This document shows positions 2,436 through 11,035 of a DNA stretch of 11,035 nt, in pieces (the first letter of the stretch is position 1; each line of letters opens with the position of its first letter). The notes beneath the pieces were generated by a model. The model made no database searches. It was given only the letters and a program-made list of their open reading frames with translations, and was not told where the DNA came from. The translations under genes were made by a program, and so were the position numbers. The DNA comes from a virus. The stretch lies in UHGV virus genome UHGV-0227640; one strand, written 5' to 3'.

Positions 2436-2456
2436 AAAAACCCGCCGAAGCGGGTT
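2436..2456 (-). terminator. Rho-independent terminator downstream of hok
   Basis: Minus-strand hairpin AACCCGC-uucg-GCGGGUU followed by UUUUU. Core 20 bp AAAAACCCGCCGARGCGGGT is nearly identical to the terminator at 571-590. Confidence 0.6.
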
Positions 2457-2524
2457 AAGCGCGGGTGCATTGAGGATGCCTGACTCATCAGAGGTGGCGA
2501 GGGATTTCTCCCCCGCCTAGTCTC

Positions 2525-2680
2525 TTACTCCTCAGGTTCGTAAGCTGTGAAGACAGCGACCTCCGTCTGGCCGGTTCGGATTCGTACCTCGCAGAGGTCT
2601 TTCCTCGTTACCAGTGCCGTCACTATGACGGTTAAACAGATGACGATCAGGGCGATTAACATCGCCTTTTGCTGCTTCAT
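2525..2680 (-). CDS. hokD: Hok/Gef-family type I toxin (small membrane-depolarising peptide), HokD/RelF-like
   Basis: Not in ORF track (51 aa). Manual translation of minus strand 2680->2525: MKQQKAMLIALIVICLTVIVTALVTRKDLCEVRIRTGQTEVAVFTAYEPEE. AAGGAG 9 nt upstream. From memory this matches HokD (RelF) of E. coli K-12. No relB/relE upstream. Confidence 0.8.
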   Translation of the reverse strand: MKQQKAMLIALIVICLTVIVTALVTRKDLCEVRIRTGQTEVAVFTAYEPEE

Positions 2681-2938
2681 AGCCTGCTTCTCCTTGACCT
2701 TTCGGTCCGTAAGAGGCTAATCTCTATGTGTCGCATAGATATGGCCTCAGATTAATGTTAAGCGTCTTGCAGGACGCGTAATGTTAACTGGGGCTTTTCT
2801 CTATCTGCCTTTTGGTGTTCATGCCTGAGACAGATAGCCTCAAGCACCCGCAGTCATTCTACTTAACTAAGATTTCCCCGCAAACCGTTTTTGTCCGGCA
2901 CAGTAAATATCCAACTAAACCAATGGCGTTCGCTGTAT
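2677..2938 (-). promoter_or_regulatory. hok mRNA leader region; expected position of mok-like coupling ORF and antisense Sok-like RNA
   Basis: 258 bp with no long ORF. A 19-codon uORF (minus 2736->2677, MRHIEISLLRTERSRRSRL) ends in an ATGA overlap with the hok start. Plus-strand TTGACC (2694-2699), 18 bp, TAATCT (2718-2723) could drive an antisense RNA. Inverted repeat CTATCTG/CAGATAG at 2801-2837. Confidence 0.3.
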
Positions 2939-3118
2939 TTACCGCCAGTATTCAATGCACATGACCGCCATGAACACCCCTAAAAAAAGGGCATTTATAT
3001 ATCCAAATATTAATATCAAAACATCAACTTTTTCCATATACCTTGCTGTGAAGATGATGGGCATACATGATACGAACAACCAGAACGCAACAAACAAAAA
3101 CTGCAATGCGTTTTTCAT
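2939..3118 (-). CDS. Small hydrophobic protein (59 aa, two predicted transmembrane helices)
   Basis: MKNALQFLFVAFWLFVSCMPIIFTARYMEKVDVLILIFGYINALFLGVFMAVMCIEYWR. Strong SD (AGGAGG) 4 nt upstream of ATG at 3118. The ORF-track N-terminal extension to 3157 lacks an SD. Embedded in a strongly A+T-rich stretch (about 2950-3290). Confidence 0.55.
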   Translation of the reverse strand: MKNALQFLFVAFWLFVSCMPIIFTARYMEKVDVLILIFGYINALFLGVFMAVMCIEYWR

Positions 3119-3288
3119 TATTCCTCCTACAATCAATGTGCAATTACATTTAAACACACCTCAATTTGGCCGGACATATAAATATCTAAACCAGAAAAAA
3201 TCACTTACATAGCGTTACAAACTCTTTAGTCTAAATATTCATCGTAAAACATTCCCCATACTTATCAGCCCGTTCTGCGCCAGGTAGC

Positions 3289-3605
3289 TCATTGCCTTAT
3301 CTGGGAATCTGTAATCAGGTTTCCGGATGCTGGTGGATTTTCGCGTTTTAGTTGTTCATAAAAGTGCACAGCTTTAACCAGTTCTTCTGATGTAACCGGG
3401 ACTGGCGGGGCAGTGAATAAGGCCTGAATTTCATAGTTCGGCCTGTCGTTACAATCCTCTTTTTTCGGTACATATTTCCAGTCACCAGACCACTACTTCC
3501 CCTGAAAGTCCGTAACGCCTTTTTTTTCACGTAGCGATATCGCCATGCCACTGTTTTTGCTTGCCCCGCCGTTTCATGCCCTTCCTGATAATTAACCTCG
3601 CTCAT
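3289..3605 (-). pseudogene. Decayed Ea22-like paralog (frameshift plus in-frame stop)
   Basis: 5' end (GTG/ATG at 3605, MSEVNYQ...) is DNA-similar to the 5' ends of the Ea22-like genes at 6470 and 7092. After about 20 codons the listed frame turns implausible (basic, low complexity), while the +1 frame carries protein-like WSGDWKYVPKKEDCNDRPNYEIQALFTAPPVPVTSEELVKAVHFYEQLKRENPPASGNLITDSQIRQ ending at 3289, preceded by TAG. Homopolymer runs (T8 at 3520-3527, T6 at 3470-3475) are likely slippage sites. Confidence 0.4.
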
Positions 3606-3778
3606 TCATCGCCCCACTCATCACAATATGCTTCGACCGGAGTTTTTCCTGCTTCATAATCATCACGCCATGCTTCAGCATCAGCAGCACTGCCACCACG
3701 TAACTCTGCATAGTCCATTAACAGTTCATGCCATGCTTCAAAACTGACGTTGTATTTAGTTGAACCAAAATCAGCCAT
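3602..3778 (-). CDS. Small acidic protein (58 aa), hypothetical
   Basis: Manual translation: MADFGSTKYNVSFEAWHELLMDYAELRGGSAADAEAWRDDYEAGKTPVEAYCDEWGDE. GAGG about 10 nt upstream. Start overlaps stop of the 3771-3953 gene and its stop overlaps the start at 3605 (ATGA). Below ORF-track cutoff. Confidence 0.5.
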   Translation of the reverse strand: MADFGSTKYNVSFEAWHELLMDYAELRGGSAADAEAWRDDYEAGKTPVEAYCDEWGDE

Positions 3779-3953
3779 TTTGCTCTTCCTCTTCGTCTTT
3801 TATTTCGTGATATGAGTAATTGCAGTAGTTAAAGAAAATATCTTTTGCTTCGTCATGTATTTCATCAGGCGTCGCATCATCATCCACTTCGAATTCATCC
3901 TCGAAATCTCCACCGGCTATTCCCGTTTCAATAATTATTTTAAACTTTCGCAT
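3771..3953 (-). CDS. Small highly acidic protein (60 aa), hypothetical; possible DNA-mimic
   Basis: ORF-track ORF MRKFKIIIETGIAGGDFEDEFEVDDDATPDEIHDEAKDIFFNYCNYSYHEIKDEEEEQNG; about 20 of 60 residues are Asp/Glu. Preceded by a structured leader (hairpins at 3961-3976 and 3991-4009). Confidence 0.55.
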   Translation of the reverse strand: MRKFKIIIETGIAGGDFEDEFEVDDDATPDEIHDEAKDIFFNYCNYSYHEIKDEEEEQNG

Positions 3954-4046
3954 TTAACTACCGCCCTTTCGGGCGGCCTCCTGATGTTCTGAGGGTGCAG
4001 AAATCCCTCCGGTTAAGGATTAAATTTTTAACAGAGCTAAATTTAA

Positions 4047-4403
4047 TTATTCAGTTCTGGATTTTGTCGCCCTGCGTATCCGCGCTTTCGCGTTACGCTC
4101 AATCTGAATTAGCTTTTCTATATTTTTTCGCCTTTCCTGTTCCTCCTGGCGCAATAGCCTTACATCATCTGCCAGTCTGGTTTCTCTTTTCGCCACAGAG
4201 AGCATCCAGTCAAATGGTTCCACAACTGCACCGCAGATTTTACAGCGGACCTGACGCTCTTTTTCGTCAACCCGGACAGAGGCGTGATGACAATATGGTC
4301 TTTCCGATGGCTCATAAAGAAAATTAACCTGATTACGAGGGTCATCCTCTTTTACCGGAAATAAAACGATATTGCTTAACTCATCCTCTGGTTTTATTTC
4401 CAT
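4047..4403 (-). CDS. Hypothetical protein (118 aa) with zinc-ribbon-like Cys/His cluster and basic coiled-coil tail
   Basis: Internal start MEIKPEDE... at 4403 with AAGGAGAGGAG upstream; the ORF-track extension to 4460 lacks an SD. PYCHH...CKICG motif. C-terminus rich in R/K/E (RRKNIEKLIQIERNAKARIRRATKSRTE). Confidence 0.6.
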   Translation of the reverse strand: MEIKPEDELSNIVLFPVKEDDPRNQVNFLYEPSERPYCHHASVRVDEKERQVRCKICGAVVEPFDWMLSVAKRETRLADDVRLLRQEEQERRKNIEKLIQIERNAKARIRRATKSRTE

Positions 4404-4524
4404 GCTCCTCTCCTTTGATGCGAATGCCAGCGGTAATTGAAGCCTGATAGCTAATTTCACTCACAGTACCGCCTCCTGAAAATTTAATGAACAATTCAAT
4501 ACGTTCTTTGGTAATAGTGGTCAT
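4381..4524 (-). pseudogene. Chimeric 47-codon ORF / deletion scar of an Ea22-like gene
   Basis: MTTITKERIELFIKFSGGGTVSEISYQASITAGIRIKGEEHGNKTRG. The first 21 bp match the 5' end of the gene at 5207 (19/21). The middle contains the TTTTCAGGAGG module. Then an Ea22-like N-terminus (VSEISYQA) is fused directly to the Ea22 C-terminal codons (AGIRIKGE; DNA CCGCTGGCATTCGCATCAAAGGAGAG identical to 5726-5751). Confidence 0.3.
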
Positions 4525-4534
4525 GTGTTACTCC

Positions 4535-4798
4535 TTAACCCGCAGTGCTTTCAACTGATGAGGGGAACAAAATCTTTTCATCAAACCCTGCATTCATATC
4601 ATGAACAGCAACACACCAATCCATCGACGAACGATTATCAAGAGCCTCCATGATTTCATCCATGCGGCGCAGGTCATACAGGTAAATGCTTTTATCGCCA
4701 ATGGTGTAAAAACCAATTTTTTTCGGTGATGGGCAGCGATCAAGAACGTCCTGTAATTCGTTCAACCATGCCCGTTCTTTTTTTGTTAAAGTTGCCAT
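4535..4798 (-). CDS. Hypothetical phage protein (87 aa)
   Basis: Internal start MATLTKKERAWLNELQDVL... at 4798 with AAGGAGAG SD; upstream stop at 4800-4802. The ORF-track extension to 4858 overlaps the upstream gene. Confidence 0.6.
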   Translation of the reverse strand: MATLTKKERAWLNELQDVLDRCPSPKKIGFYTIGDKSIYLYDLRRMDEIMEALDNRSSMDWCVAVHDMNAGFDEKILFPSSVESTAG

Positions 4799-4799
4799 A

Positions 4800-5207
4800 T
4801 CACTCTCCTTTCCCATGAAGCATAGCGGCGCGGCAGGCGTTCCATATTTCGGCAGCAATATCGCGCTCGCTATCGGTTAATTTGTACGTGGAAACATAGC
4901 CAGAGAGCATTTCTACGTTTTCCGGAGTTGCTTCTTCCGGCACTATCGGCGCTGGAGGGGCGGCAAATAGATATCCGCCAAAGTCAGGAAGCTCTCCAAT
5001 GGCCTGTACGAACTTTTGTTTGCCTACGTCAACTCCTAATGGGTAATGAGCTATAATCTTTGCCACCGGCTCTGCTTCCAGCGATACCAGTGCAATTCGT
5101 GCCAGTTCTTCCGCTTCTTCTGCTGGCAGTACAACGTTGCTACCCGGTCCGTATGTTTCGCGCCACTGCTTGATTGTCAGCAGTCGCCCTTTGGTAATAG
5201 TGATCAT
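4800..5207 (-). CDS. Hypothetical phage protein (135 aa)
   Basis: ORF-track ORF MITITKGRLLTIKQW...; ATGA overlap with the upstream gene at 5204-5207. Confidence 0.65.
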   Translation of the reverse strand: MITITKGRLLTIKQWRETYGPGSNVVLPAEEAEELARIALVSLEAEPVAKIIAHYPLGVDVGKQKFVQAIGELPDFGGYLFAAPPAPIVPEEATPENVEMLSGYVSTYKLTDSERDIAAEIWNACRAAMLHGKGE

Positions 5208-5719
5208 GCCGCGTTTCCTTCTTTCTTATTAACAATCACACCGTCATATATTTCATTAAGGTGCCCTCTCAACTCCATGCGCCTTAATGCAGATAACATG
5301 TAATCGCATTCAACCTGCTTATTCCCAGTAAATGGCTTATCGTCAGGATTACCCCAACAGCAATTACCCCTGGGCCATCCATGTACTTTCCGTACTCTTC
5401 CGTTAACAACGTGAAGTAATCCCCAGCCGGGAGGTAAATCCTCAACTGAAATAATTTCCGGCTCACTAATAAAGAATCGCCAGTCGCCCATGCCAAGTGA
5501 GGGATTTTTACGGAAACGCTTTTTTCTATCTGCCAACAAGTCAGCACGAGAACACTTCGCCTCTATCAGGCATGATGCTGAATTTCTGAATCCCATAGCA
5601 TCTGGCTGTTCTCCGGTACTGGTTACAGCAACAAAGCGGTCATGAAAGCAAACCTTGAACCCGTTGCGCTTAAGGAACTTGTACGCAATCTGACAGAGTT
5701 CGCGGTGTGTTAACGCCAT
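5204..5719 (-). CDS. Hypothetical phage protein (171 aa), possible PD-(D/E)xK-type nuclease fold
   Basis: ORF-track ORF. Pattern ...QPDAMGF...CLIEAKCSRADL resembles the D...ExK catalytic signature. Assignment tentative. Confidence 0.65.
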   Translation of the reverse strand: MALTHRELCQIAYKFLKRNGFKVCFHDRFVAVTSTGEQPDAMGFRNSASCLIEAKCSRADLLADRKKRFRKNPSLGMGDWRFFISEPEIISVEDLPPGWGLLHVVNGRVRKVHGWPRGNCCWGNPDDKPFTGNKQVECDYMLSALRRMELRGHLNEIYDGVIVNKKEGNAA

Positions 5720-5720
5720 A

Positions 5721-6470
5721 TCACTCTCCTTTGATGCGAATGCCAGCGGCGCGGATTGCAGCGATGACTTCAGAAACTTTGTATGCCATTACCGTTTGGT
5801 AATCATCGTGAAAATCTGTTCGATGAAGCATGCTGCTACGTTCCGGGAGCGATATTTCCCGAGCATCCAGTTCCTTAACGCGTTCCTCCAGTTCGTAGAC
5901 CCTGCATTGTTCTCTATCATCAATCAGATATAACCCAAGACATTCGCTTTCTACCCAACCGCCAAAATCATGATCGTAACGCTCACATGAAAACTCACCG
6001 TCACCGTCCTTTGTTGGAATGGTGTAACTATCTAATGGGCCACCATATGTCGGCACATTCCCCAATGTTGGATGCTCAATCCACATGAAAAATGCACGTC
6101 CGGTTATTGGGCAAATATCTGGCCGCCATTGGTTACGAACAGCCTTGGTTTCGGATAATTCTTCAGCGTGTTGTTTTACTTCCTCAAGCTCAACTCTCAG
6201 CTTCCCTACCGTTAGCGCAATATCCTCGTTCTCCTGGTCGCGGCGTTTGATGTATTGCTGGTTCCTTTCCCGTTCATCCAGTAGTGCCAGCACGGTTTCT
6301 GGTCCGGTCAGAAATTTGAAGGCATTGAGCGCATCAATATCCACACCGTAATCTTTAAGTTCCTGTTCACTTAACAAATCATCATCAGTTGGCAACATTA
6401 ACAGGCGTTCCATTGCTGGAATTGCACGTTCTGCTGCCTCACGCAGTGCCTGGTAATTAATTTCGCTCAC
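5721..6470 (-). CDS. Ea22-like (ead/Ea22 family) early protein, 249 aa
   Basis: GTG start at 6470 with AAGGAGG upstream. N-terminus MSEINYQALREAAERA is characteristic of lambdoid Ea22-like proteins as I recall them. Coiled-coil-like middle. C-terminus ...AGIRIKGE. Confidence 0.7.
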   Translation of the reverse strand: MSEINYQALREAAERAIPAMERLLMLPTDDDLLSEQELKDYGVDIDALNAFKFLTGPETVLALLDERERNQQYIKRRDQENEDIALTVGKLRVELEEVKQHAEELSETKAVRNQWRPDICPITGRAFFMWIEHPTLGNVPTYGGPLDSYTIPTKDGDGEFSCERYDHDFGGWVESECLGLYLIDDREQCRVYELEERVKELDAREISLPERSSMLHRTDFHDDYQTVMAYKVSEVIAAIRAAGIRIKGE

Positions 6471-6910
6471 TGGTTGCCTCCTTTGCGAAGCTCTGCGGCT
6501 AAATACTCCAACGCCATTACCGGGACGCCAACAAGCACAGTTCCTTTAAACTTCTTATGCAGGTGCTCGATAGCTGTATCCACGCCCTGCGCCCGTACTT
6601 CAGCCAGGAAAGCATCGGTGGCCGGAGTTTCAGGAATCCGTCTCCTCATCAGTTCTATTGCATGATTGAACCCGAAATCTTCAGCAAGAGATACGTCATC
6701 CATATTGTCATTGTCGTCCTCAATATCCCGTGGTTCTGGAATTGCAGACTTTATTACCGCATTCTCCGCCGCCAGCGCCGCGCACTTGGCCTCAAGAGCG
6801 GCAACCACTTCCTGATGGTCTTTGTACTTAACGTATGAGCCGGAGATGTCATCACCTTCGGTGTTTAGCCATGCGTCATTGCAATTCACTGCGTAGGTTC
6901 TGATGCTCAT
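6467..6910 (-). CDS. Hypothetical phage protein (147 aa); possibly the C-terminal part of a split Ea22-like gene
   Basis: Start MSIRTYAVNCND... at 6910 with GGGAGAG upstream; ATGA overlap with the stop of the 61-aa ORF. The ORF-track extension to 6967 is read in the frame overlapping that ORF. Confidence 0.55.
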   Translation of the reverse strand: MSIRTYAVNCNDAWLNTEGDDISGSYVKYKDHQEVVAALEAKCAALAAENAVIKSAIPEPRDIEDDNDNMDDVSLAEDFGFNHAIELMRRRIPETPATDAFLAEVRAQGVDTAIEHLHKKFKGTVLVGVPVMALEYLAAELRKGGNQ

Positions 6911-7092
6911 GTTGATGCTCTCCCGCCCCTGACAGACGCCAGGCCAGTCAATAAAGTATCCGCACAATGCCTACCCTCAGACGTGCGCGCAGGATAAATG
7001 CCGTTATGACCCGGCAAAATATATGCTACCCATTCATCTTGCGTTGCCTGTTCCGCCGCCTCGCGCAGTGCCTGATAGTCAATCTTGCTCAC
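6907..7092 (-). CDS. Ea22-like N-terminal fragment (61 aa); truncated paralog or 5' part of a frameshifted gene spanning 6467-7092
   Basis: GTG start at 7092. MSKIDYQALREAAEQATQDEW matches the N-terminus of the 249-aa Ea22-like protein. DNA at 7040-7092 is about 80% identical to 6421-6470. Confidence 0.45.
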   Translation of the reverse strand: MSKIDYQALREAAEQATQDEWVAYILPGHNGIYPARTSEGRHCADTLLTGLASVRGGRAST

Positions 7093-7573
7093 TGGTCGCC
7101 TCCTTCATAAAAATAATCCAGTGGGTCTTGTCACCCTTTCCTGTTCGTTGACCGATAACAGGCTTTCTGTCGGTCAGTGCCAATATCTGGCGAACAGGTA
7201 TTTGCGTTTCATTCCATTTAAAAATCAGAACGCTGTATGGCCGCAACACACGAAAGGCTTCTTTAAATCCCTGCCGCAAATCATCACGCCAGGTATCTTT
7301 ATTCAGCCGTCCATATTTCTTTCCCATCCAGGCGTTATCACCAACACGCTCAAGATGCGGAGGGTCGAATACAACAACCGGAAACGATGCGTCTGCAAAT
7401 GGTAATGCACGAAAATCTGCTATCAGGTCAGGGCTAATTATCAGTCTTCGTCCATCACATAATGTGTGCTCTTCCTTTCTGATATCGCTAAATATCGCCC
7501 GGTCGTCATTCTTATCGAACCAGAACATGCGGCTGCCACAGCACATATCAAGAATGGTTGCCGGTGCACTCAC
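7079..7573 (-). CDS. Small SAM-dependent DNA methyltransferase (orphan; N6-adenine or N4-cytosine type)
   Basis: 164-aa ORF. Motif I-like ILDMCCGSRMFWFD near the N-terminus and motif IV-like VVVFDPPH. GTG start overlapping the upstream stop (GTGA). No adjacent restriction enzyme gene. Confidence 0.6.
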   Translation of the reverse strand: MSAPATILDMCCGSRMFWFDKNDDRAIFSDIRKEEHTLCDGRRLIISPDLIADFRALPFADASFPVVVFDPPHLERVGDNAWMGKKYGRLNKDTWRDDLRQGFKEAFRVLRPYSVLIFKWNETQIPVRQILALTDRKPVIGQRTGKGDKTHWIIFMKEATSEQD

Positions 7574-7992
7574 TGCGCTACCTCCTGAAAATTACCCTGA
7601 TAAAACGACAATATGCGCTGCATAACTTCGCTCTTCCGGCACTCGCGACAGATTATGTTCTGACGCCTGTCGTAGCGGCGTATTTCGCCGTCTGGTAATA
7701 GCCAGATAAGGTCCGGATCAACCACAGATGGTTTCTTCAGCTTTGCCCTTGAGAGTTTTTTGCGGGCGTTTTGCCAGTCCTTGCGCGCCTGCTCAGACGG
7801 GAATACTCCGTAACCGGAATTGTAAACATCACCACTGGCGGCCAGCTCCATGCATAAACGACCGACAGACGCATGACTGACACCAATTTCATCCGATAAC
7901 TGCCGAATCGTGCCTCGTCCGTTAAGGCGTACGAATTCCACGATCAGCCCTTTAATTTTTTCCCGCTCTTCTTGTGTAAAAACTTTTGCCAC
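7570..7992 (-). CDS. HTH (winged-helix-like) DNA-binding protein, 140 aa
   Basis: ORF-track ORF. GTG start with GGAGG 5 nt upstream. HTH-like segment GTIRQLSDEIGVSHASVGRLCMELA. Confidence 0.6.
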   Translation of the reverse strand: MAKVFTQEEREKIKGLIVEFVRLNGRGTIRQLSDEIGVSHASVGRLCMELAASGDVYNSGYGVFPSEQARKDWQNARKKLSRAKLKKPSVVDPDLIWLLPDGEIRRYDRRQNIICRECRKSEVMQRILSFYQGNFQEVAQ

Positions 7993-8032
7993 AAGCCCTC
8001 CTGAAAATTACCTCATGACCAGAAATTAACAC

Positions 8033-8995
8033 TTACCCCCTGAAGCCCGGCGGAATTTCAGTGTCCGGTTCAGAAATGTGATTCACGCAACGCTGCGCAG
8101 GCGAACGCCCCAGGCGGATAACCAGTTCATCCCATTTTTCCCGGAGTTTTGCCGGACTCATGATGTTTTTTACCCAGAACGAATCCCGCTGGAGACGCCC
8201 AAACATTTCACAAATTTGTCTGTGAGTTCTGCCATCCAGCATCCGCATTGTGCGAACGTCATTGGCCCATGCTGTCCAGTTGGGTTCTTTCGGTCTAGTG
8301 ATCTCGCCATCATAGCTGGCCGCCTGCTCGTAAAGACTCACGATTCGTCCCCAGATCCACTGTGCGCACACCAAATCTTCCTGACTTCCCCACTGGCGTT
8401 TTTTCGCACTGAACACAACCGCGTCAGGGTGTCGGGTTAAAAAATCCTGTTCAGCCGTCTGCGGGTCCGGTTGCGAAGCGTCCGGACAAGAAGATCTTTT
8501 ATCTGACGGATCAGGTTTTAATACTGACGGATCGGGGTCAATCATCGGCCCCCTAATCGGCAGTTTTTTATCAACAGTTGATCCATCAAAATTTGACGGG
8601 TCAACCGTTGAGGGGTCAATATTTGACGGGTCAACTGTTAACGGGTCATTTTTTGCCGGGCTAATTTTTCTTTTCGGTTTATATGACTCACGCGCCGCCG
8701 CCGCAGCTGCTTCGAGTTTTTCCACATTAAGCCGATAGATATTGCTTACATTACGCCCACCGACCTTACGCTCTTCCTTCGTCAGCCAGCCCTCTTTCGC
8801 CAGTTCTGCAATAGCCGATTTCACTGTGGATTCACTTCTTGCACCGATCTGACGCCGGATAGTTTCAATGGCAGGCCATGACACGCCCTCGTCATTGCTG
8901 TAGTCTGCAAGACGGGCCATAACCGCCACCCTGGATAAGATCATGCCGGTGAAGGCGCACCCTTCCCAGACAAGACCATGAAGCTTGCTGCTCAT
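8033..8995 (-). CDS. Phage replication initiator (lambda O-like): N-terminal winged-helix DNA-binding domain, repetitive linker, C-terminal domain
   Basis: N-terminus ...MARLADYSNDEGVSWPAIETIRRQIGARSESTVKSAIAELAKEGWLTKEER. Linker with repeats DPLTVDPSNIDPSTVDPSNFDGSTVD encoded by the DNA iterons. ATG at 8995 with a G-rich SD preferred over GTG at 9010. Confidence 0.75.
   Translation of the reverse strand: MSSKLHGLVWEGCAFTGMILSRVAVMARLADYSNDEGVSWPAIETIRRQIGARSESTVKSAIAELAKEGWLTKEERKVGGRNVSNIYRLNVEKLEAAAAAARESYKPKRKISPAKNDPLTVDPSNIDPSTVDPSNFDGSTVDKKLPIRGPMIDPDPSVLKPDPSDKRSSCPDASQPDPQTAEQDFLTRHPDAVVFSAKKRQWGSQEDLVCAQWIWGRIVSLYEQAASYDGEITRPKEPNWTAWANDVRTMRMLDGRTHRQICEMFGRLQRDSFWVKNIMSPAKLREKWDELVIRLGRSPAQRCVNHISEPDTEIPPGFRG
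8500..8690. repeat. Iteron array plus A+T-rich segment: putative phage origin of replication inside the initiator gene
   Basis: About six copies of TGACGG(G/A)TCA and variants at 8504, 8525, 8594, 8609, 8624 and 8638, some spaced 15 bp apart, followed by the A+T-rich stretch 8649-8685 (TTTTTTGCCGGGCTAATTTTTCTTTTCGGTTTATATG). Confidence 0.55.
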
Positions 8996-9017
8996 AAAAC
9001 CCCCGAACACCGTGCTT

Positions 9018-9443
9018 TTAGTGCATCACCACAGCATTCCCTGCCGGGCCGCCGCGATTCATCTGGTCATACAAAACAACCGCTGACGCAACAAAATCAT
9101 CGACATCCTTCACCAGCCGATCCCTCCGTTCGACGATCTCACGGTAATATTCAGAACTGTGGCTGCGCATACGGGCCACCAGCAAAGGCGGCATCGCCTT
9201 TTCGATCGCCGGTAACAGAGCCTGCATTTTTTCAACAGCATCAGGGGTGTCTTTATCCAGCCAACGGAAAATTTTCTGGGTATTACGGGCCAGGGCTTCC
9301 GGATGGCTGTCGTCATACAGTTCCGGGAACGTCATTCCCAGCTCGAAATACGCTTTGGTAATTTTCGCAGCCGGCACTTTTTCGCCGTCCGGATGCGCCC
9401 AGACATTCATCGCCATGCGGATGTGTTCATGCTTGATTTTCAT
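9018..9443 (-). CDS. YdaT-like (CII-like) regulatory protein, 141 aa
   Basis: ORF-track ORF MKIKHEHIRMAMNVWAHPDGEK.... The position (between the Cro-like and replication genes) and the N-terminus resemble E. coli Rac YdaT as I recall it. Confidence 0.6.
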   Translation of the reverse strand: MKIKHEHIRMAMNVWAHPDGEKVPAAKITKAYFELGMTFPELYDDSHPEALARNTQKIFRWLDKDTPDAVEKMQALLPAIEKAMPPLLVARMRSHSSEYYREIVERRDRLVKDVDDFVASAVVLYDQMNRGGPAGNAVVMH

Positions 9444-9708
9444 GAATCAAGCTCCTAGAAAGTGGTTGTGTTAACGTTTTGGTATCTTCCAGCTCGGGCC
9501 AAATATTCATCCAATCAAAAGGCCTTAGTTGCTGACGTGTAACTTCACCATTACTGGCTCGCTCAATAAGGACACATAACGATGCCCCTAACACTTGACC
9601 TTTACTCAATGCCTTTCTTAGATAACCGATGCTGGTACCACACTCGCATGCAAACATACGCTGTTCATCTGACGAAAGAGAATTGAGAAATATTCTTAAT
9701 TCTTCCAT
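9427..9708 (-). CDS. Cro-like / YdaS-like HTH regulator, 93 aa
   Basis: ORF-track ORF. AAGGAG 6 nt upstream of ATG at 9708. HTH-like segment CECGTSIGYLRKALSKGQVLGASLCVLIERAS. Divergent from the repressor gene. Confidence 0.7.
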   Translation of the reverse strand: MEELRIFLNSLSSDEQRMFACECGTSIGYLRKALSKGQVLGASLCVLIERASNGEVTRQQLRPFDWMNIWPELEDTKTLTQPLSRSLIHENQA

Positions 9709-9732
9709 AGCTACTCCTTAGTAAACACAGCA

Positions 9733-9802
9733 AAGAATACCCACAGGTAAACAAAAGTCAATACCCACAGGTTGTTTACCTTGCGGTAATCGCATCTATT
9801 AT
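9733..9802. promoter_or_regulatory. Immunity switch: divergent promoters with operator-like sites
   Basis: Sites TACCCACAGGTA (9738-9749) and TACCCACAGGTT (9762-9773), 24 bp centre to centre. Inverted repeat AGGTAAACAA / TTGTTTACCT (9746-9755 / 9771-9780). Leftward promoter TTGACT (9761-9756), 16 bp, TATTCT. Rightward TTTACC (9775-9780), 16 bp, TATTAT (9797-9802), placing the transcript start at or next to the ATG at 9809 (leaderless, no SD). Confidence 0.5.
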
Positions 9803-9808
9803 TTACCT

Positions 9809-10228
9809 ATGGACAAATATGAATTTAGACGACAGCAACTCATCAAAATTCGTGATGAGAAATGCGATGGTAAAGCGGTTAACGTGGCCAGAAAGATCGG
9901 GCGCGAGCCTTCTTATGTATCAAGAATGTTGTACCCAGAGGGGAAAAAGGGAAAAAAACGGATCGCTGATGATATGGTGGAGATTATCGAAGAGTCCTTT
10001 GGGTTACCCCGGGGATGGATGGATGGTATCGTTTCATCATCAACGAACACAGCCTCCAGTTATGAAACAAGGGTTCTAACGCCACGACAACGTATTTTTT
10101 TAGATCTCTTAGACGAACTGCCAGAAAGTGAAGCGGATAAATTATTAAAAACTCTTGAAGAGAAAAAACAGTATTACAATATGATCTACGAAGAAATCCG
10201 TAAAAAGAAAGCACAAAACGCATCATAG
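9809..10228 (+). CDS. Prophage repressor-like HTH protein (positional equivalent of CI/DicA/RacR), 139 aa
   Basis: ORF-track ORF. HTH-like segment AVNVARKIGREPSYVSRMLYP. C-terminal ...LDELPESEADKLLKTL resembles the DicA C-terminal region as I recall it. No S24 peptidase domain. Confidence 0.7.
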   Translation: MDKYEFRRQQLIKIRDEKCDGKAVNVARKIGREPSYVSRMLYPEGKKGKKRIADDMVEIIEESFGLPRGWMDGIVSSSTNTASSYETRVLTPRQRIFLDLLDELPESEADKLLKTLEEKKQYYNMIYEEIRKKKAQNAS

Positions 10229-10270
10229 CTCACCAAACAACTAGTCACCAGTTAAGACACCGCAAAAATT

Positions 10271-10307
10271 TACCCATGGGTATTTACTTTTTAAATACCT
10301 ATGGGTA
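10271..10307. promoter_or_regulatory. Second pair of operator-like sites upstream of the ydfA-like operon
   Basis: Perfect palindrome TACCCATGGGTA (10271-10282) and TACCTATGGGTA (10296-10307), 25 bp centre to centre, same consensus as the sites at 9738-9773. Confidence 0.4.
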
Positions 10308-10493
10308 TCCTTCTTTTCATACCAACCCACCCCGCCCCACAGAACGCCAGGCAATACTTCGAGTTACCCGGCAGTGGTCAGGGGTTAAGTAGCCAGCCCG
10401 AGGCGTATGAACATGACGGCGGGAACACTTTATATAACAGCGCAGCAGTTTTTTAGTTCCGCTACCCCGGCGTTAAGGGGAAATGAGGTCAGC

Positions 10494-10649
10494 ATGGATA
10501 CTATCGATCTTGGCAACAGCGAATCTCTGGTATGTGGCGTGTTCCCCAACCAGGACGGTACGTTCACCGCAATGACGTATACCAAAAGCAAAACGTTTAA
10601 AACCGAAAATGGTGCCCGTCGCTGGCTGGAAAGAAACTCAGGTGAGTGA
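10494..10649 (+). CDS. ydfA: YdfA/YdaF-family (DUF1391) small protein, 51 aa
   Basis: Internal start MDTIDLGNSESLVCGVFPNQDGTFTAMTYTKSKTFKTENGARRWLERNSGE with GAGG 6 nt upstream. Matches YdfA of the K-12 dicB operon from memory. The ORF-track extension from 10407 lacks an SD. Confidence 0.6.
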   Translation: MDTIDLGNSESLVCGVFPNQDGTFTAMTYTKSKTFKTENGARRWLERNSGE

Positions 10650-10650
10650 T

Positions 10651-10779
10651 ATGGATTTTGACACAATCATGGAAAAGGCTTACGAAGAATACTTCGAAGG
10701 CCTTGCCGAAGGCGAAGAAGCTCACAGCTTCAACGAATTTAAACAGGTGCTTTCCAGTTCGGCAAAATCTAACGGCTGA
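10651..10779 (+). CDS. ydfB: YdfB-like small protein, 42 aa
   Basis: Manual translation MDFDTIMEKAYEEYFEGLAEGEEAHSFNEFKQVLSSSAKSNG. Start is 1 nt after the upstream TGA. Size and position match ydfB. Below ORF-track cutoff. Confidence 0.5.
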   Translation: MDFDTIMEKAYEEYFEGLAEGEEAHSFNEFKQVLSSSAKSNG

Positions 10780-10808
10780 TAAGCGAAACAGCACCGCGAG
10801 GAATCAGT

Positions 10809-11027
10809 ATGCAGAAACGAGAACCCGTCATCATCGCGCCAGACTATACCGATGATGAACTTTATGAGTGGATGCGCCAGAAAATTAATGCAGCGCAGGA
10901 TCTGAAATGGGCCAATGAAGCCAGGACTAAGCAGGCTGAAAATCTGTCCGCTCTGGAGCAGGATATCACCAGGCTGGAAAAAGCAGCGGCATTAAGCATT
11001 GCCAGAATGGTTACATACCCACGTTAA
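10809..11027 (+). CDS. ydfC: YdfC-like protein, 72 aa
   Basis: ORF-track ORF MQKREPVIIAPDYTDDELYEWMRQKINAAQDLKW.... GAGGAA SD. Size and position match ydfC of the dicB operon from memory. Confidence 0.55.
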   Translation: MQKREPVIIAPDYTDDELYEWMRQKINAAQDLKWANEARTKQAENLSALEQDITRLEKAAALSIARMVTYPR

Positions 11028-11035
11028 TAGCTAAC

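Follow-up and report, generated by a model that had tools for sequence, protein, structure and literature searches.

Two independent genes in the early operon of an Escherichia coli lambdoid prophage: a minimal putative amino-methyltransferase and a PD-(D/E)xK nuclease-fold protein

This work concerns two genes in an 11,035-nucleotide (nt) stretch of the virus genome UHGV-0227640, analysed over its full length and called the window below, which is part of an Escherichia coli lambdoid (lambda-like) prophage. The first gene, at 7079..7573 on the minus strand, encodes a protein of 164 amino acids (aa) that is predicted to be a minimal class I S-adenosylmethionine (SAM)-dependent amino-methyltransferase; the second, at 5204..5719 on the same strand, encodes a 171-aa protein with the PD-(D/E)xK nuclease fold, distantly MmcB- and Hjc-like. 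They lie 1.4 kb apart in one operon with three Ead/Ea22 open reading frames (ORFs) between them. An earlier prediction made from the letters alone had described an orphan DNA methyltransferase and a nuclease-like protein as one feature of an early operon; it did not mention the Ead/Ea22 ORFs. Both of its ORFs proved to be real, at the coordinates and on the strand given above, and their treatment as one feature had to be given up. We propose, with a probability of about 0.6, that the cro-side (PR-type) early operon holds the two as independent accessory genes, one for a DNA amino-methyltransferase and the other for an MmcB/Hjc-like nuclease.

Gene, motifs and fold of the 164-aa methyltransferase

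The GTG start codon of the methyltransferase gene is preceded by an AGGAGG Shine-Dalgarno sequence 7 nt upstream and overlaps the stop codon of the DUF977 gene as GTGA. In the translated protein, motif I, the SAM-binding G-loop ILDMCCGS (residues 7-14, encoded at 7532..7555, minus strand), is followed by the catalytic tetrapeptide of motif IV, DPPH (residues 70-73, 7355..7366, minus strand), and then by motifs V-VI; these are the SAM-binding-like and DPPH motifs that the original prediction had picked out. Within motif I, L8 and D9 are invariant across phyla and G13 is invariant or nearly so, and DPPH is invariant in the E. coli, Listeria, Gordonia, Porphyromonas and Halorubrum virus homologues (five phyla or domains). 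DPPH stands directly after a strand (residues 64-69) and fits the pattern (D/N/S)-P-P-(Y/F/W/H) of exocyclic-amino methyltransferases, so the enzyme is predicted to be of the type that methylates an exocyclic amino group. As in other class I (Rossmann-fold) SAM methyltransferases, motif I follows strand 1 and an acidic residue ends strand 2.

Profile searches place the protein among the methyltransferases. It matches PHROG 954, "DNA methyltransferase" (E 2.7e-87), and, over its full length, the PADLOC profiles MTase_II (E 2.6e-73) and oMTase (E 3.8e-49); all 66 of the aligned family members match Methyltransf_11/25, the N-terminal half aligning to positions 1-78 of Methyltransf_25 (motifs I-IV); the motif I region was aligned to positions 1-70 of that profile. 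Alignment of the motifs in such searches was the check that the original prediction had set for itself, and the motifs do align, far better than by chance. A search of the PDB with the family profile returned PH0226 (1ve3, E 5e-4), the sole significant sequence match for either protein or profile, in which LDMCCGS is matched to LDLACGVG and D30 to the Asp of strand 2; the strand-4 region aligns too. No close solved structure was found by PDB sequence search or Foldseek, and an NCBIfam search gave no family for either this protein or the 171-aa protein.

The AlphaFold2 (AF2) model of the methyltransferase has a mean confidence (pLDDT) of 89. Residues 1-81 are modelled as strands and loops only, with no helix before residue 82 by DSSP; class I methyltransferases normally have helices A-C in this part. 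One face of the sheet may therefore be masked by a partner protein or by another subunit. The catalytic core uses up all 164 residues and the chain ends right after the Rossmann core, which bears out the statement that no target-recognition domain (TRD) is present; the sole insert in the core comprises residues ~74-94, between motif IV and helix D.

Family spread and probable substrate

The methyltransferase family numbers about 8000 clusters at 90% identity, is found in 254 phage records and occurs in 899 of 5426 complete E. coli genomes (about 17%). Identity to the window protein is 64% for gp66 of Gordonia phage BatStarr, 56% for a Porphyromonas phage protein, 53% for ORF50 of Listeria phage A118, 47-50% for the sampled Streptococcus phage proteins and 34-38% for proteins of haloarchaeal tailed viruses. 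A family so widespread and so highly conserved is without a Pfam or NCBIfam model of its own. In every phage inspected the gene lies within the replication/recombination module, and in Gordonia phage BatStarr (L003 2418-4468) and Akkermansia phage Chantilly (L167 1521-3477) it directly follows and overlaps the gene of a 500-525-aa C5 cytosine DNA methyltransferase. The labels given by depositors, all of them predictions, differ widely: the A118 protein is said to methylate cytosine residues, and that of HRTV-28 is called an "N6-adenine methyltransferase".

Of the earlier name "DNA methyltransferase", the part that stands is the type, a SAM-dependent amino-methyltransferase; DNA is only its likely substrate, and a part in protection from restriction is conjectural. 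Foldseek places Trm11 (E 2.6e-5) above M.TaqI (E 4.1e-4) and the putative DNA methylase TTHA0409 (E 5.3e-4), and more generally Trm11, TrmN, RsmC, TrmM and generic small-molecule methyltransferases rank at least as high as the DNA methyltransferases. Because RNA and small-molecule enzymes head the ranking, the fold is silent on DNA versus RNA. It is conceivable, if rather unlikely, that the 164-aa enzyme acts on RNA or protein, i.e. on a universally conserved base of rRNA or tRNA (giving N2-methylguanosine, m2G, or N6-methyladenosine, m6A) or on a glutamine, and so alters host translation or blocks an RNA-targeting defence. RefSeq sometimes uses the name "TRM11 family methyltransferase", and identities as high as 47-64% across phyla and 34-38% to the haloviruses would suit a universally conserved substrate. 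The motif order, motif I and then (D/N)PP(Y/F), is also that of the RNA enzymes Trm11, TrmN/Trm14, RsmC, RsmD and TrmM. However, the 164-aa protein has no THUMP or other RNA-binding domain such as those enzymes carry, and it is the product of a phage early-operon gene; in every phage inspected the family's gene is embedded among DNA replication and recombination functions, and in some it is grouped with genes of DNA methyltransferases; matches to UPF0020 (Trm11/RlmL type; 5 of 66 relatives) and to RsmD-type profiles (1 of 66), all at E 0.1 or worse, are rarer and weaker than those to PF01555; and the generic small-molecule methyltransferases score equal to the RNA enzymes, so that the structural ranking tells little.

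The methyltransferase is probably an orphan, early-expressed amino-methyltransferase with a short or relaxed specificity, and DNA, specifically phage DNA, is its likely substrate. DNA is our best guess from the family names in PHROG and PADLOC, from the sub-threshold PF01555 similarity of residues ~61-130 and from the genomic context. In 16 of the 66 relatives these residues align with positions 2-70 of PF01555 (N6_N4_Mtase), its DPPY-to-motif-VI half, DPPH falling at the start of the profile; the window protein itself gave no PF01555 match. Membership of PF01555 would call for a match over the whole domain, including the TRD and the C-terminal FxGxG. The absence of a variable domain together with the conservation across phyla points to one fixed or relaxed target rather than to sites tailored to each host. 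Most likely the enzyme would be made only upon infection or induction and would act on phage DNA as it replicates, methylating adenine at N6 or cytosine at N4; its specificity is probably short, relaxed or dependent on dimerisation, which would give broad cover against restriction. Prophage orphan methyltransferases are typically silent in lysogens, as methylome papers on ST131 and group A Streptococcus confirm, and some, with M.EcoGII (PMC5778455) and Hia5 (PMC3299994) as precedents, are promiscuous; published work on these points comprises PMC5778455, PMC3299994, PMC4659465 and PMC8597746.

Compared with the β-class N6-adenine/N4-cytosine methyltransferases (PF01555; M.RsrI, M.PvuII, M.EcoGI/M.EcoGII), the 164-aa family shares DPP(Y/H) followed by a conserved W and "RVL.p.G.l". 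It differs in being unpermuted, with the SAM motif N-terminal where the β class has it C-terminal, in having no TRD, in its length of 164 aa against about 350, and in PF01555 scores that fall below the cutoff. M.EcoGII is likewise a prophage-borne orphan, silent in the lysogen (PMC5778455), whereas for the 164-aa protein silence is only inferred. The window enzyme was considered as M.EcoGI/M.EcoGII itself, and this was rejected: those are 349-aa β-class enzymes (PMC5778455) that match a different gene of the near-identical Ecol_316 prophage. That prophage carries, outside the window and after the Q antiterminator, a separate and true PF01555 enzyme, a second, β-class N6_N4 methyltransferase of 349 aa (L001 1996-3045; PF01555 E 6.2e-44), equal in size to the non-specific, prophage-borne M.EcoGI/M.EcoGII.

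Also comparable are the promiscuous phage orphan adenine methyltransferases Hia5, Hin1523 and Nma1821 (PMC3299994) and PamA, all of them orphan, phage-borne, small or relaxed-specificity DNA methyltransferases. The Hia5-type enzymes replace the Mom function of phage Mu, which shields phage DNA from restriction (PMC3299994), and PamA, a small prophage Dam of 141 aa with NPPY at residues 64-67 and GATC specificity, demonstrates that ~140 aa are enough for an active DNA methyltransferase (PMC12435837). By their descriptions, the Hia5 type (α-class with a TRD, per PMC5778455) and PamA belong to families different from that of the 164-aa protein.

A more far-reaching idea, which we hold as tentative, is that in the 164-aa protein we may have an amino-methyltransferase of nucleic acids that is minimal by nature, with no TRD and little or no sequence specificity, and acts on DNA or on a universally conserved host RNA, and that some phages may pair it, or other methyltransferases, with an MmcB-like modification-sensitive cutter. 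On DNA, such a minimal enzyme could be an anti-restriction enzyme of the M.EcoGII/Hia5-like "methylate everything" kind at half the size. A non-specific DNA target or a universal host RNA target would explain identities of 47-64% among phages of Proteobacteria, Firmicutes, Actinobacteria and Bacteroidetes and of 34-38% to haloarchaeal viruses. The substrate and specificity of this very small and very conserved methyltransferase are the most interesting point of the locus. A non-specific or short-site DNA methyltransferase of ~19 kDa would be a handy footprinting enzyme and would partly explain how temperate phages cross restriction barriers; an enzyme that targets RNA would be a new kind of phage-host interaction.

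The 171-aa PD-(D/E)xK protein

The gene of the 171-aa protein has an AGGAG ribosome-binding site and an ATG start codon 1 nt past the upstream stop, and its own stop codon overlaps the next ATG. The predicted nuclease active site, P39-D40 ... E53-A-K55, is encoded at 5555..5605 on the minus strand (translation PDAMGFRNSASCLIEAK) and was aligned to VDVMG...IECK of 3dnx; the D...ExK-like motif of the original prediction is thus present, in a PD-(D/E)xK fold, and it is conserved in distant relatives. The AF2 model (pLDDT 89) has the α-β-β-β-α-β core of PD-(D/E)xK nucleases, made up of helix 5-18, strands 22-26, 41-45 and 48-54, helix 58-64 and strand 80-85. D40 stands ahead of strand 41-45 and E53 and K55 at the end of strand 48-54, so that the Asp of strand 2 and the (D/E)-x-K of strand 3 are both found on the core, as in the rest of the superfamily.

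In a Foldseek search against the PDB the single significant match was 3dnx (SPO1766; E 3.8e-6, template-modelling (TM) scores 0.58/0.67, 24% identity), and the weaker matches were all PD-(D/E)xK proteins, namely Hjc, R2 endonuclease domains, HincII and Bax1. When the profile of the 171-aa family is aligned to 3dnx, tGeqpDaiGfr..asclIEaKcSRsDllaDrkk pairs with rGlrvDvmGlg..eiwvIEcKsSRaDfqaDakw, and this 3dnx fragment scores 38.7 bits on the Pfam MmcB-like family PF06319. PHROG 9263 and PHROG 631, both of unknown function, match the 171-aa protein; PADLOC, NCBIfam and PDB sequence searches gave no match. A full scan with HMMER, over 1.84 billion representatives, gave 3314 clusters (50% identity) at E <=1e-3 and 2506 at E <=1e-10. 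Among 57 distant relatives (33-56% identity) D40 is invariant and E37, E53, K55, S57, D64 and K67 are conserved in at least 90%.

The nearest named families are MmcB-like and Hjc. The signature D...E-x-K-x-S-R-x-D-f-x-x-D-x-K is common to the MmcB-like proteins (PF06319; 3dnx, SPO1766) and the 171-aa family, and weak PF06319 matches were found for 12 of the 57 distant relatives (best E 2.9e-4); the window protein and 78 close relatives had no match to PF06319 (cutoff 22 bits) at E up to 1. The 171-aa protein differs from MmcB-like proteins in an extra C-terminal helical segment (residues ~119-160) and in being phage-borne, unlike Caulobacter MmcB, which is a chromosomal SOS gene. With archaeal Hjc (PF01870) it shares the small, single-domain PD-(D/E)xK build. 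Weak Hjc matches, all below threshold, were obtained for 30 of 79 close and 21 of 57 distant relatives (best E 1.3e-4) and none for the window protein; the Foldseek matches to Hjc are short alignments and likewise weak (E 0.04-0.8). RusA is already encoded by the copy of the prophage in Ecol_316. We concluded that the 171-aa protein belongs to a sister family of the MmcB-like and Hjc nucleases with an intact predicted active site, and that by the Pfam rule it is not a member of PF06319.

We propose that the protein is a Mg2+-dependent endonuclease of the PD-(D/E)xK fold, closest to MmcB-like and Hjc-type nucleases, whose most likely task would be to cleave branched or damaged DNA while the phage replicates or recombines. 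It might instead be a nuclease for host takeover or anti-defence that degrades host DNA, RNA or signalling molecules, or it might bind DNA without being catalytically active; we regard this as possible, with the odds against it. Its gene sits among moron-like genes (Ead/Ea22, hok, RosmerTA) and not beside recombination genes, the family is also present in lytic Vi01-like phages, and the database names are all "hypothetical"; against this, relatives sampled from the 3314 clusters at 33-56% identity keep the catalytic D, E and K, the nearest folds are those of MmcB-like and Hjc-type DNA nucleases, and the protein is basic, with an isoelectric point (pI) of 9.15.

The nuclease family is present in 642 phage records, always as "hypothetical" or mislabelled, which include Stx phages, P7, Klebsiella and Vibrio siphophages and the Vi01-like phages, and the gene occurs in 931 of the 5426 complete E. 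coli genomes (about 17%), with 250 copies on plasmids. In 100%-identical DNA (L001 8870-9516 = window 5073-5719) the intact 171-aa ORF is labelled by RefSeq/PGAP as a "frameshifted" pseudogene fragment, and the database clusters of the protein have inconsistent lengths of 111-245 aa; the gene is therefore systematically mis-called.

Independence of the two genes and their setting

Co-occurrence was counted in a sample of 80 methyltransferase loci and 80 nuclease loci from IMG/VR, each taken with up to 10 kb on either side. A nuclease-family ORF was found in 4 of the 80 methyltransferase loci and the methyltransferase in 2 of the 80 nuclease loci, which leaves 76 and 78 loci, respectively, without the other gene, and no conserved neighbour was found for either gene in these 80 + 80 loci. 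The two genes are thus functionally independent modules that rarely co-occur: both are common in E. coli, yet joint loci are rare and the complete 2.37-kb arrangement (5204-7573) was found in 13 genomes only.

These counts also bear on whether the two proteins make up a phage-borne pair of the restriction-modification type, with the nuclease as the cutter of unmodified DNA and the methyltransferase as the protector of the phage. The two genes do share one operon at a distance of 1.4 kb, and a nuclease-family ORF adjoins the small DPPH methyltransferase in all four of the methyltransferase loci that hold both families, L052 (6451-7474), L053 (10001-11009), L058 and L060 (both 9123-10468); in Vibrio phage D217 (L166 2391-3582) a nuclease relative adjoins a PF05869 Dam methyltransferase. 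However, the top-ranked Stx-phage and P7 matches cover the nuclease and Ead section only, without the methyltransferase gene; the family sizes (642 phage records, lytic phages included, for the nuclease against 254 for the methyltransferase) and the host spectra differ; and the methyltransferase has no linked cognate endonuclease gene of the kind that marks a type II restriction-modification system. The absence of a neighbouring restriction enzyme, claimed from the start, agrees with this, the sole nearby nuclease-fold gene being a rare companion with no PADLOC match. The pair was rejected on the co-occurrence counts; already largely refuted by distribution, it is left as a most improbable explanation. 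Our tentative reading of the adjacency in a few loci is that accessory genes cluster in a single mosaic region. In L058 the nuclease-family ORF beside the small methyltransferase has 289 aa and exceeds the Pfam MmcB-like cutoff. The D217 methyltransferase was considered as a member of the 164-aa family and rejected, as it has no BLASTP similarity and is a PF05869 Dam.

Several points weigh against two independent accessory genes for a DNA amino-methyltransferase and an MmcB/Hjc-like nuclease. Motif IV rarely has His as its fourth residue. The PF01555 matches of the methyltransferase relatives reach only 13-23 bits (best E 9e-5), below the gathering cutoff of 26.7. The 171-aa protein has no Pfam match of its own, and by sequence alone its match to 3dnx has an E of only 0.42. 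The two families are adjacent or close in the few shared loci, and in a minority of phages they may be functionally linked. Literature searches found no experimental study or demonstrated activity for any member of either family.

Both proteins belong to known kinds, class I amino-methyltransferases and PD-(D/E)xK nucleases, so that nothing here is categorically new, and both are encoded by ordinary, common prophage accessory genes. The main value of the analysis is better annotation, in that a 171-aa "hypothetical" protein or pseudogene is recognised as intact and as belonging to the MmcB/Hjc-like PD-(D/E)xK proteins, here a very large family in phages.

The operon begins, on the minus strand, with a cro-like helix-turn-helix (HTH) gene (9427-9708), from which all genes leftwards are co-oriented and tightly packed: a YdaT/cII-like gene in the position of lambda cII (9018-9443), an O-like replication initiator (8033-9010) and a DUF977/Ren-like gene (7570-7992) directly upstream of the methyltransferase. 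A PR-like sigma-70 promoter match, TTGACT-16-TATTCT (9734..9761, minus strand), was found by a consensus scan and is a pattern match only; across it the cro-like gene faces a cI-like gene (9809-10228), and back-to-back PR-like (minus) and PRM-like (plus) promoter matches occupy 9734-9802 between the two. We presume that the PR-like match is the promoter of the operon with both genes, a function inferred, like the transcription of the operon, from lambdoid gene order. Stops and starts of neighbouring genes overlap or abut, and both target ORFs have good Shine-Dalgarno sequences; with this dense, co-oriented packing behind the PR-like match, the label "early operon" fits and is a fair one.

Between the two target genes, all on the minus strand, lie a 61-aa ORF for an Ead/Ea22 N-terminal fragment (6907..7092; Pfam Ead_Ea22 E 3.6e-14, profile positions 1-45), an Ead/Ea22 C-terminal-type ORF of 166 aa from a TTG start (147 aa by PGAP in the RefSeq annotation; 6467..6967; E 1e-10, profile positions 38-138) and a 249-aa Ead/Ea22-like protein (5721..6470; E 3.1e-29); further small ORFs follow beyond the 171-aa gene. 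The Ead/Ea22 gene at 6467-7092 is seemingly split into an N-terminal ORF and an overlapping, out-of-frame C-terminal ORF, which suggests a frameshift or a recombination joint. The database protein P0005 (279 aa) is a methyltransferase-Ead fusion.

The Ecol_316 prophage (NZ_CP018957) is 99.93% identical to the window over 2437-11035, and for the span 5204-7573 identity is 100% in six complete genomes and 98.8% in strains of O104:H4. Relative to this otherwise 99.9%-identical prophage, the window has a 1.85-kb insertion at 591-2436 that carries a RosmerTA-type defence pair, the minus-strand ORFs 602-1747 and 1744-2358; RmrA is a 381-aa HTH and peptidase protein (PADLOC E 5.5e-102) and RmrT has 204 aa (E 7.5e-10). 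At 2525-2680 (minus strand) a 51-aa ORF encodes a Hok/Gef family toxin (Pfam HOK_GEF E 1.2e-23), annotated as hokD in Ecol_316. A 137-aa ORF at 4047-4460 (minus strand), considered as a conceivable Trm112-like partner of the methyltransferase, matches PHROG 1621, of unknown function, and has a weak TFIIB-type zinc-ribbon match (E 2.2e-4).

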